Source: Candidatus Yanofskybacteria bacterium RIFCSPHIGHO2_01_FULL_43_32 (GTDB lineage: Bacteria; Patescibacteriota; Minisyncoccia; 2-02-FULL-40-12; GWA2-44-9). From it: a stretch of 54,022 nucleotides of DNA. The DNA is taken from NCBI GenBank assembly GCA_001794125.1, contig MGJF01000001.1, positions 1-54,022 on the forward strand, read 5' to 3'. Below, in pieces: positions 11,201 to 33,336 of this stretch. Within the stretch, counting starts at the first letter, position 1; every line of letters begins with the position of its first letter. Both the position numbers and the translations under genes were made by a program. The notes beneath the pieces are model-generated. The model was not told the origin of the DNA and searched no databases. It saw only the letters and a list, made by a program, of their open reading frames with translations.

Positions 11201-12052
11201 TTACTCGTCGGTCTGGGCCCACCGCTGCTTGCGGCTCTGGCCCCGCGGGGTCTTCGGGGTGAACTGCGTACCCCGATCGAACCCGTCGTGACGGACGGCG
11301 TCGCCGACCTTGAAGCCGAGCCGCGACTTCATGGCCGCTTCCTGGTTCGTGCGCTCGTCGCGCTTGGCCAGGATGCTGGCTTTCACGCCCGCGGCACGGG
11401 CGTTGGCCTGGTCGAACGACTGGCTGGGCAGAAGCGCGGGCTTCGACCGCTGGTTGCCCCGCGAGTCCGTGTACTGCTCGTACACGACCTCGCCATTCCG
11501 GTCGCGCTTCAGACGCAGCCGGAACAGGCACTCGCCGGAATGGGCGCCGTGAACCGTGAGGTTCAGAGCGTCGGGTCCCACGGCCACGAACTGGCCGCGG
11601 TACACGATGTTGCCGCTCTGCTTGTCCCGCATGAGGTCGCCAGTTTCCCGGTCGACCAACGCGGTCCGGACGAAGCCCGTCACGAGCTCCGAGCAGATGG
11701 GGCAGTTCACCCCGTCCATCGGCGCCGTTTCGTCGGCGCCGTGGATTGCTTCCAGTTCCGCCGGACCCATCGGGGTGCCGCGGAACTGCGCGTGCCGCTG
11801 AAGTTCCTCGTAGCGGAGCGCGTAGCGGTCTTTCTTCCCGTAGAGTCCGGCCCGCTTCAGGCCGTACGGGTCCCGGTTCAGCCAGTCCGCCCCTTCGGGG
11901 GTGACCGTCTTGACCTTCGGCGGTGCGGATTCCGCCGCGACCGCCGCGTCCTTGTCGGACGAACCGGACAGCTCCGGAAGAACCGACGGGGTCTCCGCCG
12001 CCATCGCCGCGATATCCCTGTCCGTGACCGAGCGAATCTTCTGTCTCGCCAT
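11201..12052 (-). CDS. GC-rich hypothetical protein (CPIC and HxxxC motifs)
   Basis: 283 aa; SD aaaggag; mostly G/C-ending codons in this frame; terminator downstream. Confidence 0.75.
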   Translation of the reverse strand: MARQKIRSVTDRDIAAMAAETPSVLPELSGSSDKDAAVAAESAPPKVKTVTPEGADWLNRDPYGLKRAGLYGKKDRYALRYEELQRHAQFRGTPMGPAELEAIHGADETAPMDGVNCPICSELVTGFVRTALVDRETGDLMRDKQSGNIVYRGQFVAVGPDALNLTVHGAHSGECLFRLRLKRDRNGEVVYEQYTDSRGNQRSKPALLPSQSFDQANARAAGVKASILAKRDERTNQEAAMKSRLGFKVGDAVRHDGFDRGTQFTPKTPRGQSRKQRWAQTDE

Positions 12053-12265
12053 GGCAACACTCCTTTGGCCAGTTCACTGGCCGAGAGCTCTTCCGGGGTG
12101 AATCCCCATTACATTCCGCGAAAGCGCGGTCAGTTAGGAAAGAGCGTTTTGAGGGCCAATTTGTTTGTGTTGATCAGCCCGCTAAATGCTCTTTCCTAAA
12201 TAAGTTATTAAAGTAACTAAATCTTTACTATATTCTCATTATACTCCTTTCGGATAAAAAGTCAA

Positions 12266-12567
12266 CCCCTCACCTTTTGAGCATCAGAAGGCTATTTTTA
12301 ATTCTTCCTTTTAATTGGCCATAGGCCTTACCGAATACTTTTAGATTTGTTTCTCTTTTTAGTGCATCTTCTTTTGAAAAATAGCCTTCAAAATACACAC
12401 AAACCCATGGCATGTATCTTTTTGTTGATATGTTATCGCCAGTATTGTGTTCTTCTATCCTCCTAATAATATTTGTCGTAATGCCAATATACAAAGAATC
12501 ATTCTTTTTACTTTTTAGGACGTAAACATAATGCATGGGATAATCTTAATGCTCGAAAGGTGAGGGG
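12266..12567 (-). mobile_element. GIY-YIG mini-element with 19-bp TIRs and TCAA direct repeats
   Basis: cccctcaccttttgagcat 12266-12284 / atgctcgaaaggtgagggg 12549-12567 (1 mismatch); tcaa at 12262-12265 and 12568-12571. Confidence 0.7.
12270..12536 (-). CDS. GIY-YIG nuclease (small standalone type)
   Basis: YVYVLKS, LYIGIT, RRIEEHN, STKRY, ALKRETNLK. Confidence 0.92.
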   Translation of the reverse strand: MHYVYVLKSKKNDSLYIGITTNIIRRIEEHNTGDNISTKRYMPWVCVYFEGYFSKEDALKRETNLKVFGKAYGQLKGRIKNSLLMLKR

Positions 12568-12595
12568 TCAAGGCCATTTTTTAATTATAAAAAAT

Positions 12596-12616
12596 GCCCG
12601 CACTTTTCGTGCGGGC
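12596..12616 (-). terminator. Intrinsic terminator
   Basis: gcccgcac-ttttc-gtgcgggc followed by a T-run on the minus strand. Confidence 0.6.
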
Positions 12617-12641
12617 CGGGGAGATTAATCCCCTTGAAAAT

Positions 12642-13289
12642 CTACGCAACCGGAGCAGAAGCCATTTCCGGAATCGGCGCCGGCGCGGAAAGGACGATTC
12701 CGGCATCGTCTGTCAGGTTAAGCTTCGAAGCTCGTGTAGACAGAAGGACTTTCGGTCCGATGCCGCGGTTGTTTTCGTCACGGCCGCCGCTGAAGACCCA
12801 GTCATTTGGAATACGGCCGGCACAGCCGAGCATCAGAACCCGGTGGCCGGTAGCGGCGCCGTCTTTTTCAAGGTAAGGGTTTAGATGCCCTTGAGTTGCC
12901 CAAAGGTTGTTGCTGGTCATTTCAACAAAAATTCTTTCCAATCCTTTCTTTTGGGCGACGAAGTCAGGGAAAAGCTCATCTTTCTTTACGTATTCATTGC
13001 GACAGAATACGAATCGGACGAAGGACATTCCCCAGTTTCTTTCATGCGGTTTTTGCCACACGTCTACGAGCTCGTAATCACCGCTGAAAGTGAAAGCAAC
13101 TTTGTTTGCCAGAGCGGCGAGATCCACTTTTGGTGTGGATTCAAGAACTTCCACGCCGGGTACCGGCGGCAAAGGAGGTTCATCAGAAGCGCGTTTGTGT
13201 GGAATTTCTGTCGGAACAAGGTTGTTCCGCATCAAAAACTGAAACACGACGAGCCGAACTGACAGACCGAGCGTTGCGATTGTCTTCAC
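12642..13289 (-). CDS. Hypothetical protein
   Basis: 215 aa; GTG start with aaggag SD; terminator downstream. Confidence 0.7.
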   Translation of the reverse strand: MKTIATLGLSVRLVVFQFLMRNNLVPTEIPHKRASDEPPLPPVPGVEVLESTPKVDLAALANKVAFTFSGDYELVDVWQKPHERNWGMSFVRFVFCRNEYVKKDELFPDFVAQKKGLERIFVEMTSNNLWATQGHLNPYLEKDGAATGHRVLMLGCAGRIPNDWVFSGGRDENNRGIGPKVLLSTRASKLNLTDDAGIVLSAPAPIPEMASAPVA

Positions 13290-32871: not shown

Positions 32872-32946
32872 GGCCCTATCGTCTATCGGTTAGGACATTT
32901 GCTTTTCAAGCAAAGAAGGCGAGTTCGACTCTCGCTAGGGCTGCCA
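32872..32946 (+). tRNA. tRNA-Glu(TTC)
   Basis: tttgc-ttTTCaa-gcaaa; CCA encoded. Confidence 0.95.
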
Positions 32947-33075: not shown

Positions 33076-33336
33076 ATGAGATTCTATTATGTTTACGTTT
33101 TATACAACCAAAGCGAGAATTTTATTTACATAGGTTATTCCGAAGATTTAAAACAAAGAGTCACAGAACACAATAAAGGCCGTGTTAAATCAACAAAATC
33201 TTTCTTGCCCTTGGAGTTGATCCATTATGAAGCGTATAAAAACAAGAAAGACGCAAAACGCAGAGAATTATATTTGAAGACCAACAGAGGCAGAACAACA
33301 CTTCTGACAATGCTTAAAGAGTATTTTACAGAATAG
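33076..33336 (+). CDS. GIY-YIG nuclease (small standalone type)
   Basis: YVYVL, IYIGYSEDLKQRVTEHN, STK, AKRRELYLK. Confidence 0.92.
   Translation: MRFYYVYVLYNQSENFIYIGYSEDLKQRVTEHNKGRVKSTKSFLPLELIHYEAYKNKKDAKRRELYLKTNRGRTTLLTMLKEYFTE

Follow-up and report, generated by a model that had tools for sequence, protein, structure and literature searches.

The closest published counterparts of the element described here are the Ssn systems with their NTS/SRM repeats (cd10448), in which single-domain GIY-YIG nucleases bind the hairpin repeats that flank their own genes and cut single-stranded DNA beside them (Chenal et al. 2025, Nat Commun, PMC11893778). The layout is called identical to that of an IS in the main text of that report, which proposes domestication and presents no demonstration of transposition; the terms “target site”, “duplication” and “Patescibacteria” are absent from the same main text (PMC11893778). 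SsnA repeats are mentioned as a benchmark set in a 2026 preprint (10.64898/2026.09.22.753630). Stand-alone prokaryotic Slx1-like domains have been described as the minimal, ancestral form of GIY-YIG (Dunin-Horkawicz et al. 2006, PMC1564403), and a GIY-YIG protein is listed among the genes transferred from Patescibacteria (PMC12455944). Our literature search retrieved no description of a bacterial GIY-YIG-encoding element with inverted ends and target duplications.

The window, by which we mean the whole 54,022-nt stretch of DNA analysed, belongs to a genome of 762 kb in 13 contigs that is 100% complete (G000). At positions 12266-12567 it carries a 302-bp unit whose sole ORF, a GIY-YIG nuclease gene, is enclosed by inverted ends, so that the element combines two known kinds of system, namely TIR/TSD transposons and Ssn-type nuclease-hairpin systems. 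As in Ssn, so far as the main text of the Ssn report describes it, the protein is a single-domain GIY-YIG nuclease of ~90 aa (88 aa and one domain here, in line with an Ssn size of 90-100 aa), and copies of a hairpin-forming repeat, which is found elsewhere in the genome too and co-varies with the protein lineage, stand on both sides of the gene. The flanking repeats take a modified form, being the two arms of one hairpin with 13 further copies in G000: the window gene lies inside a single hairpin, between its arms, whereas the Ssn gene of the published text lies between two complete hairpins. The published SRM consensus HGTCWYN(0-2)YYVSBRHN(0-5)WNVSBRGN(0-2)RNCYNB, searched as a regular expression, has no match in C1:11800-13000 and three genome-wide. 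In addition, the copy number in G000 is low (14, compared to the hundreds described for Ssn), and the nearest solved relatives of the window protein are UPF0213 and SLX1. For the window element it could be shown that the target is duplicated, that empty sites exist and that there is a defined target, TTGA in −35 boxes, which sets it apart from Ssn as covered in that main text.

The features of the locus, including comparisons with a congeneric species (G003), are as follows.

12568..12571, minus strand: target duplication, upstream copy, reading TTGA on the gene strand; the empty site of G003 has it once
12549..12567, minus strand: promoter-side inverted end, CCCCTCACCTTTCGAGCAT on the gene strand
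12543..12548, minus strand: predicted −10 box TAAGAT, from the promoter scan
12270..12536, minus strand: gene for the 88-aa single-domain GIY-YIG nuclease, from the ORF and its Pfam match
12266..12284, minus strand: distal inverted end, ATGCTCAAAAGGTGAGGGG on the gene strand, which encodes the last residues and the stop codon
12262..12265, minus strand: downstream copy of the target duplication, which restores the predicted host −35 box TTGACT
12238..12265, minus strand: predicted host promoter TTGACT-16-TATAAT, the insertion target (promoter scan, 11/12), uninterrupted in G003
11201..12052, minus strand: GC-rich gene that follows the predicted host promoter
12596..12616, minus strand: intrinsic terminator of the upstream gene (12642..13289, minus strand), conserved in G003, which forms the upstream edge of the intergenic target region

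In reading order the window has ...AAAAAG TCAA CCCCTCACCTTTTGAGCAT ... ATGCTCGAAAGGTGAGGGG TCAA GGCC.... The initial annotation had described 19-bp TIRs with one mismatch, flanking TCAA repeats, a stop codon inside the left TIR and the absence of a transposase, and each of these was seen on inspection. The ends CCCCTCACCTTTTGAGCAT (12266-12284) and ATGCTCGAAAGGTGAGGGG (12549-12567) are complementary at 18 of 19 positions; the TCAA direct repeat lies at 12262-12265 and 12568-12571; and the TGA stop of the nuclease (12272..12270, minus strand) falls within the arm 12266-12284. A repeat search extends the arm pair to 20 nt (12265-12284 / 12549-12568, 95%), because the flanking A and T also pair. 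The arm 19-mer, written with Y and allowing up to three mismatches, occurs exactly twice in the 54-kb window, against a mean of 0.00 in 100 shuffles. Ends of 19 nt with one mismatch are those of a TIR/TSD transposon; no transposase gene lies between the two arms, the only ORF being GIY-YIG where such a transposon has a recognised transposase. Rfam at gathering thresholds returned no family over the element or its ends.

Comparison with the whole genome of G003 revealed the empty counterpart of the locus, with the single TCAA that the initial annotation had proposed to look for. Where the window has TCAA[302 bp]TCAA, the syntenic site of G003 reads ...AAAAAG TCAA GGGCCCGCAC..., in full ...TACTCCTTTCGTATAAAAAG TCAA GGGCCCGCACTTTTGTGCGGGCC..., with a predicted promoter TTGACT-N17-TATAAT intact and the terminator directly next to it. 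Fifteen elements of G000 were compared in this way; six of the 15 sites could not be aligned, and all nine readable ones are empty in G003, each with one copy of the flanking 4 nt (TTGA six times, TTTA, CAAA and TTTT once each) and none with a hairpin remnant. The nine sites, all empty in G003, are the following.

Window element: TCAA/TTGA
C4:56594-56893, second GIY-YIG element, with different ends: TTGA
C2:6716, gene-less copy: TTGA
C2:147879, gene-less copy: TTGA
C2:275959, gene-less copy: TTGA
C3:47658, gene-less copy: TTGA
C9:7979, gene-less copy: TTTA
C3:62315, 26-nt mini hairpin: CAAA
C2:210301, 29-nt mini hairpin: TTTT

For C3:47658 and C9:7979, the pair of BLAST segments shares exactly 4 nt of G003 sequence; for the other readable sites, BLAST anchored one flank and the junction was identified by eye. 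The distinction between insertion and precise deletion is polarised by a single outgroup genome. A search of G003 for paired copies of the end family (up to one mismatch) gave solitary matches only, and the exact 12-mer once. A metagenome contig from a 93%-identical relative follows the left flank through 12265 and continues into GGGCCAGCACC..., which is again the empty configuration. Joints 12283->12550 in Logan contigs were considered as excisions and rejected, since 29-31 other letters are present and the contigs represent gene-less copies at other loci; a duplication of 6 nt (GTTGAC) fits four elements and not that of the window, so 4 nt was kept. The target duplications expected of a TIR/TSD transposon are thus seen against empty sites at nine of nine readable positions, and it is nearly certain that the 302-bp unit is a real mobile element, shown here to have inserted at TTGA within a predicted promoter −35 box, duplicating 4 bp.

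The ends belong to a family within G000. The 11-nt end core, allowing one mismatch, has 31 matches in the genome. The coding element accounts for part of them, as do five gene-less elements of 63-132 bp and eight mini hairpins of 26-29 nt (typified by CCCCTCACCTTTCGGAAAGGTGAGGGG), and the others are single matches. The search for further TIR copies called for at the outset thus found 13 gene-less copies with the ends of the window element in G000 (26-132 bp), and more in other genomes. The second element, at C4:56594-56893, has the ends CCCCGCCGTTGGGAAGCCC, sits in the predicted −35 box before a gene starting MVKITPLSDH, and has two gene-less relatives in G000, one of them flanked TTAT/TTAT. 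A third small GIY-YIG gene (C6:12344) has AT-rich inverted ends, and no ends were detectable at three more in G000, all of which lie beside tRNA genes. These comparisons show that gene-less derivatives of 26-132 bp were inserted elsewhere in the genome in the same way, and the best explanation of the 302-bp unit is a protein-coding member of a hairpin-ended transposable element family.

To define the stem formed by the paired ends, 12 members with the CCCCTCACCTTT end from six genomes were compared. Pairs 1-12 are identical in sequence among the 12 members, with two single changes as the exceptions. At position 13 a Watson-Crick pair is present in just 5 of 12, T·G or C·A being most common there; 10-11 of 12 members are paired at positions 14-19, with 1-4 pair types per position, and at position 20 pairing ends abruptly (1/12); the loop sequences are unrelated among the members. 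The stem therefore consists of 12 sequence-specific bp, one mismatch and 6 bp in which only pairing is kept. In the single-stranded DNA fold of the whole element the ends pair in both the MFE and the centroid structures (z = −4.88). Such a 12+1+6 pattern fits ends that are recognised folded together and does not fit two separate duplex binding sites, which suggests from covariation that the stem is recognised in its folded form.

Insertion at −35 boxes, as proposed in the initial annotation, gained statistical support. Among 18 insertions with a TTGA duplication from G000 and other genomes, 13 lie in a promoter-like −35 context by the criteria of the promoter scan, many of them matching at 11-12 of 12 positions. 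As background, all TTGA sites of G000 give 550 of 10307 (5.3%), and those outside ORFs of at least 120 aa give 183 of 1357 (13.5%); the difference from the latter has a P of 2e-8, which overstates independence in that the 18 sites come from related genomes. Junctions tallied by eye continue with C (TTGAC) in 14 of 16 cases. Other duplications comprise TTTA, TAAA, CAAA, TTTT, TCCA, TGGA, TGAA, TTAT, CGGG and CACG, most of which are one step away from TTGA or TCAA. Altogether, TTGA in promoter-like −35 boxes is shown to be the preferred target.

The promoter scan of 11900-12800 found two sites on the minus strand and no further ones, and both correspond to what had been described from the letters: TTGACC-17-TAAGAT (12571..12543, 9/12 matches), with the nuclease ATG at 12536, 6 nt past TAAGAT, and TTGACT-16-TATAAT (12265..12238, 11/12 matches), which contains the left TCAA. 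The predicted −35 box TTGACC (12571..12566) is composed of the duplicated TTGA and the first two C of the inverted end, and the distance to the ATG predicts a leaderless nuclease mRNA. The composite promoter, as predicted from sequence, recurs in related copies: a left junction TTGACC followed by 16-18 nt, a −10-like hexamer, 6-8 nt and the ATG is present in 6 of 9 coding elements with a TTGA duplication. This suggests that the duplication supplies the predicted −35 box of the nuclease, while the other TTGA copy, together with the host's own C, would restore the predicted −35 box of the host. TTGA, not TCAA, stands on the sense strand in all nine of these coding elements. Two gene-less TTGA-flanked copies show the opposite polarity of the position-13 asymmetry, so orientation is seemingly not set by the mechanism; the 9/9 orientation of coding copies probably reflects selection for expression.

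The nuclease matches Pfam GIY-YIG (PF01541) with an E of 8.1e-18 and 64.9 bits against a cut-off of 22.6, and it shows the profile, the catalytic residues and the beta-beta-alpha-beta-alpha fold of the GIY-YIG superfamily; NCBIfam offered no specific or informative family. Residues Y5, Y16, G18, R26, H30, T38, E50, A58, R61, E62 and K66 are invariant in 17 relatives. The AF2 model has a pLDDT of 87.6 and the order E-E-H-E-H-H, and structural similarity search by Foldseek matched it to UPF0213, SLX1, I-TevI and UvrC. By this model, the closest folds are UPF0213 BH0048 and the SLX1 nuclease domain, with TM of 0.62-0.66 and 31-38% identity; the E values are 1.6e-3 to 3e-4 for UPF0213/SLX1 compared to 5.8e-2 for I-TevI, with I-TevI and UvrC further off and UPF0213 and SLX1 as the only PDB relatives. 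In a variant contig of 86% identity, 27 of the 34 differences among those listed inside the ORF fall on third codon positions. The invariant residues and this third-position bias point to a nuclease under purifying selection.

Homologues of the nuclease (E<=1e-15) occur in 39 of 105 genomes of the order, up to four per genome, and in none of the five other species of the genus. Thirty loci of the order were analysed (29 from the homologue search and the C4 element; inverted-repeat score of at least 13). An inverted repeat surrounds the ORF at 27 of them, or at 26 without L061, which was rejected as an end-bounded element because its repeat is a self-palindrome and not a pair of ends. The left arm stops 0-14 nt before the ATG, the right arm contains or adjoins the stop codon, and the whole unit spans 274-320 bp. 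The arm sequences vary by lineage (CCCCGCACCTTT, TCCCACACATAA, CCCCCACCTAAC, CCAGGTAGTGAA and CCCCGCTCTTGA), and two of the order relatives (L043 and L052) are pseudogenised. In a collection of species genomes, searched with the single window protein as query, which does not reach the characterised SsnA proteins, the same architecture was found at 42 of 79 analysable loci, with a median of 292 bp; these include Omnitrophota, Planctomycetales, Bdellovibrionales, Bacillota and deltaproteobacterial MAGs. Units of ~300 bp with a gene inside a hairpin are widespread in Patescibacteria and occur in other phyla.

Direct repeats of at least 4 nt flank 13 of the 27 end-bounded coding elements of the order, compared to 39 of 702 mismatched pairs (5.6%, P 5e-10), and 7 of the 42 in the wider set, compared to 22 of 1722 mismatched pairs (1.3%). 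With boundaries set automatically, no direct repeat is seen at 14 of 27 coding elements in the order and at 35 of 42 in the wider set. For gene-less copies in other genomes, an exact 4-nt repeat lies at the predicted boundary in 7 of 16, and the nine without one are mostly of 27-36 nt. Some sub-lineages have other sites. Five relatives lie directly against a tRNA gene at its 5′ end, oriented as the tRNA is and with repeats of 5-9 nt; three have (T)ATG flanks; and the site of one, probably of three, is at the P3 hairpin of RNase P RNA, where no direct repeat is seen (L056, read in detail, matches with 91.9 bits, and L050 and L058 are weak matches of 56 bits against a gathering score of 100, with the RNA placed inconsistently). 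Whether other GIY-YIG genes share the TIR and a 4-bp TSD had been raised at the outset. Inverted ends are indeed common (26/30 loci in the order, 42/79 in the wider set) and repeats of at least 4 nt accompany part of them, whereas the arm sequence itself is lineage-specific. A lack of other copies, of an empty allele or of ends around homologous genes, any of which would have spoken against a mobile element, is therefore ruled out.

In architecture the family resembles MITEs and their parent IS (Correia/NEMIS, IS5-/IS630-derived): it has TIRs and a 4-bp duplication at every site readable in G003, its gene-less derivatives outnumber the coding copy, and it shares the intergenic location and the effects on promoters, which are predicted here. 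It differs in that the sole encoded protein is GIY-YIG and not a DDE, HUH, serine, tyrosine or DEDD transposase, and in that its ends show compensatory changes keeping the 19-bp stem. The smallest IS known to us is more than twice as long as the ~300-bp coding element.

We propose that the 88-aa GIY-YIG nuclease is itself the mobility enzyme, which is the best explanation and one that we hold to be moderately probable. The nuclease, being SLX1/Ssn-like, would recognise both ends folded into the 19-bp stem, either as single-stranded DNA or as an extruded cruciform, through 12 sequence-specific outer pairs, one mismatch and 6 structure-only pairs. It would then cut at the base of the stem beside the 4-nt flank and make a 4-nt staggered cut at TTGA-like targets, with joining completed by host polymerase and ligase and the gene-less hairpins moved in trans. 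One possible joining route, which is speculation, would be a cohesive-end cycle of restriction and ligation, with staggered 4-nt cuts at the donor junctions and the target followed by host ligation; such a cycle would explain why the target is duplicated, why the empty sites are precise and why TTGA persists. What speaks most strongly for the nuclease is the preservation, across phyla, of gene and ends as one unit whose end sequences co-vary, in agreement with the published biochemistry of Ssn nucleases. Several points count against it. The protein has no separate DNA-binding domain; many elements show no direct repeat under automatic boundaries; two assemblies, G002 and G055, contain copies of the end 12-mer, with no small GIY-YIG gene found in either; and GIY-YIG enzymes are hydrolytic nucleases, for which we know of no strand-transfer activity, so that the joining step is left without a demonstrated catalyst.

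This gap in the chemistry lends some weight to an unlikely alternative, in which MITE-type ends are moved by an unlinked enzyme, such as a Y1 IS200/RAYT-like protein or host repair, and the GIY-YIG gene is a passenger, for example a selfish nuclease or an addiction/maintenance factor. The end 12-mer, with 13 copies in G000, also has 10 in G002 (92% complete) and 6 in G055 (95% complete), and no small GIY-YIG gene was found in the G002 and G055 assemblies, whose matches lie only in UvrC-sized frames of 531 and 479 aa; copies have thus been maintained, or have moved, in assemblies that show no small nuclease gene. Moreover, G000 encodes two Y1_Tnp proteins (C12 and C5). The window family resembles REP/REPIN repeats with their RAYT (Y1, IS200-like) in that a single-copy nuclease gene stands between inverted copies of the short palindromic repeat that its product would spread, with a hairpin as the recognised form. 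However, each Y1_Tnp gene of G000 is bracketed by its own, different hairpin and not by the repeats of the window family, whose enzyme is of another family and which has target duplications; elements of the IS200/IS605 type are not known to make any. The transposase Pfams PF01609, PF00665, PF07282, PF13359, PF13586 and PF13358, DDE families among them, have no match in the 100%-complete G000. Finally, the ends lie at a fixed distance around the gene at 27/30 and 42/79 homologous loci and change in sequence with the protein lineage across phyla, and a passenger would not be kept so.

Less probable still is that the nuclease and its hairpins form a domesticated Ssn-type system serving the host, by cutting incoming or replicating single-stranded DNA or as terminator/promoter insulators, with old insertions that have lost self-movement. 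Purifying selection on the protein and the terminator-like look of the short hairpins, several of which are followed by T runs, are in keeping with it, and domestication is what Chenal et al. propose for NTS-ssnA-NTS in the main text, together with an effect on transformation (PMC11893778). Against such settled service stand the nine of nine readable sites that differ between two species of one genus, the absence of the coding element from five of five congeners (E<=1e-15), the patchy distribution (a homologue in 39 of 105 genomes) and the pseudogenised copies L043 and L052, all of which are marks of a selfish element in flux.

GIY-YIG homing endonucleases are the classic mobile nucleases, and the free-standing ones (I-TevI, T4 Seg) share with the window element a GIY-YIG core in a selfish mobile context. 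It is nevertheless highly improbable that the element spreads by cleavage of short hairpins already present, or of a specific site, with the nuclease gene then copied in from a filled copy by break repair and the 4-bp repeats arising as a by-product. Homing requires homologous flanks and is not known to give a target duplication, whereas the window element has inverted ends and target duplications at many unrelated, non-homologous loci with varied repeats (TTGA, TTTA, CAAA, TCCA, TGGA). In addition, the empty sites of G003 hold one 4-nt copy and no hairpin remnant, and the protein, at 88 aa, consists of the nuclease domain only, lacks a DNA-binding domain of the I-TevI type and is nearer in fold to SLX1 and UPF0213. 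The three relatives at the P3 position of RNase P RNA without a direct repeat (L050 and L058 being weak matches) would suit homing. An integron attC cassette was dropped, as there is no integrase and the inverted ends lie on both sides.

Returning to the nuclease as transposase, its fuller form, which we credit and doubt in equal measure, would make the ~300-bp units smaller than any other autonomous transposable element known, and the first to have a GIY-YIG mobility enzyme, moving through a folded-hairpin intermediate and a 4-nt staggered cut, with sub-lineages that have distinct safe-harbour targets. For the lineage of the window element the target would be the −35 box; relatives would use the 5′ end of tRNAs, the start codon or the P3 hairpin of RNase P RNA. 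Such units may, in addition, supply the enzyme that is missing for further families of hairpin repeats scattered through Patescibacteria genomes.

If the nuclease drives movement, this would be a new transposition chemistry, with GIY-YIG joining DDE, HUH, serine, tyrosine, DEDD and Cas1 as a catalytic class, and one carried by an element short enough for synthesis as a single member of an oligonucleotide pool. The 12-bp recognition stem and the 4-nt target would then be of interest as a minimal DNA-insertion tool, and the question of the Ssn paper, whether nuclease-plus-hairpin-repeat systems are, or descend from, transposons, would be settled. Hairpin repeats and small GIY-YIG genes that lack an explanation are frequent in annotations of Patescibacteria, and the family accounts for some of these. 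The host is an ultra-small groundwater bacterium, and the element shows a strategy of parasites in 0.7-Mb genomes with almost no spare DNA: it lands in a −35 box, would rebuild that box for the host from the target duplication, and would use the other copy for its own expression.

The GIY-YIG hairpin element at L056 (16-660), a locus on contig C2 of genome G041 that carries a homologue of the element's nuclease, occupies exactly the position of the P3 hairpin in RNase P RNA. Its right arm ends in ...CTCACGGGG and is followed immediately by AGGAAAGTCCGA, and the GTAGTC directly 5' of its left arm can pair with the 3' strand of P2. The RNase P RNA at this locus scored 91.9 bits against the Rfam model, which is under the gathering score of 100. 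Two other loci, L050 and L058, probably also represent GIY-YIG elements at the P3 position of RNase P RNA. None of the three copies has a flanking direct repeat.

Other relatives of the element, namely L049, L051, L054, L062 and L067, and also L123, L125, L126, L138 and L173, directly adjoin a tRNA gene at its 5' end and point in the direction of that gene. In these tRNA-linked relatives, a direct repeat of 5-9 nt, together with the G's that end the right arm, restores the tRNA's first bases. The window itself contains a second small GIY-YIG gene, which lies 3' of a tRNA gene (32872-32943):

33085-33294, + strand, second small GIY-YIG gene

No inverted ends were detected around this gene. It shares the 3' motif GAGGGGCCAAGGGGAGTGGAAAAC with a tRNA-linked copy in the same genome (G000 C2:288732), which looks vertically inherited, as it is conserved in the congeneric species G003 at 87% amino acid identity.

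The nuclease ORF of the 302-bp element encloses a perfect inverted repeat of 13 nt:

12287-12299 / 12377-12389, inverted repeat, GAAGGCTATTTTT / AAAAATAGCCTTC

The G032 copy, which is 70% identical, has the two arms as well, and their pairing is contained in the predicted centroid fold of the single-stranded DNA. Beside the element, from the insertion site to the terminator stem, the window has ~21 AT-rich bases (CATTTTTTAATTATAAAAAAT, 12572-12595) more than G003, and these extra bases supply the terminator T-tract in G000.

The outer, invariant 12-mer of the element ends occurs in 10 copies in G002 and 6 in G055, some of them with TTGA or TCCA duplications, and neither assembly contains a small GIY-YIG gene.

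The gene downstream of the targeted promoter (11201-12052, - strand) has a G+C content of 65%, compared to 44% for the genome. Neither this gene nor the one upstream of the element (12642..13289) has a match in Pfam. Within its 190-nt leader, the GC-rich gene has a further repeat:

12134-12199, inverted repeat, 23 nt, 87%, TTAGGAAAGAGCG.../...CGCTCTTTCCTAA

Both arms are kept in G003, where the loop is ~90 nt compared to 20 in the window; the repeat could be either a leader structure or a further hairpin insert.

Elsewhere, G000 encodes two IS200/RAYT-like proteins of ~220-235 aa:

C12:4559-4795, - strand, Y1_Tnp gene
C5:4039-4365, + strand, Y1_Tnp gene

Each gene is flanked by its own hairpin (CGACACGGCGTGTCG and CTTTCCATAAGCCTTGCTTATGGAAAG, respectively), and the two proteins are candidate enzymes for other hairpin repeat families of G000.
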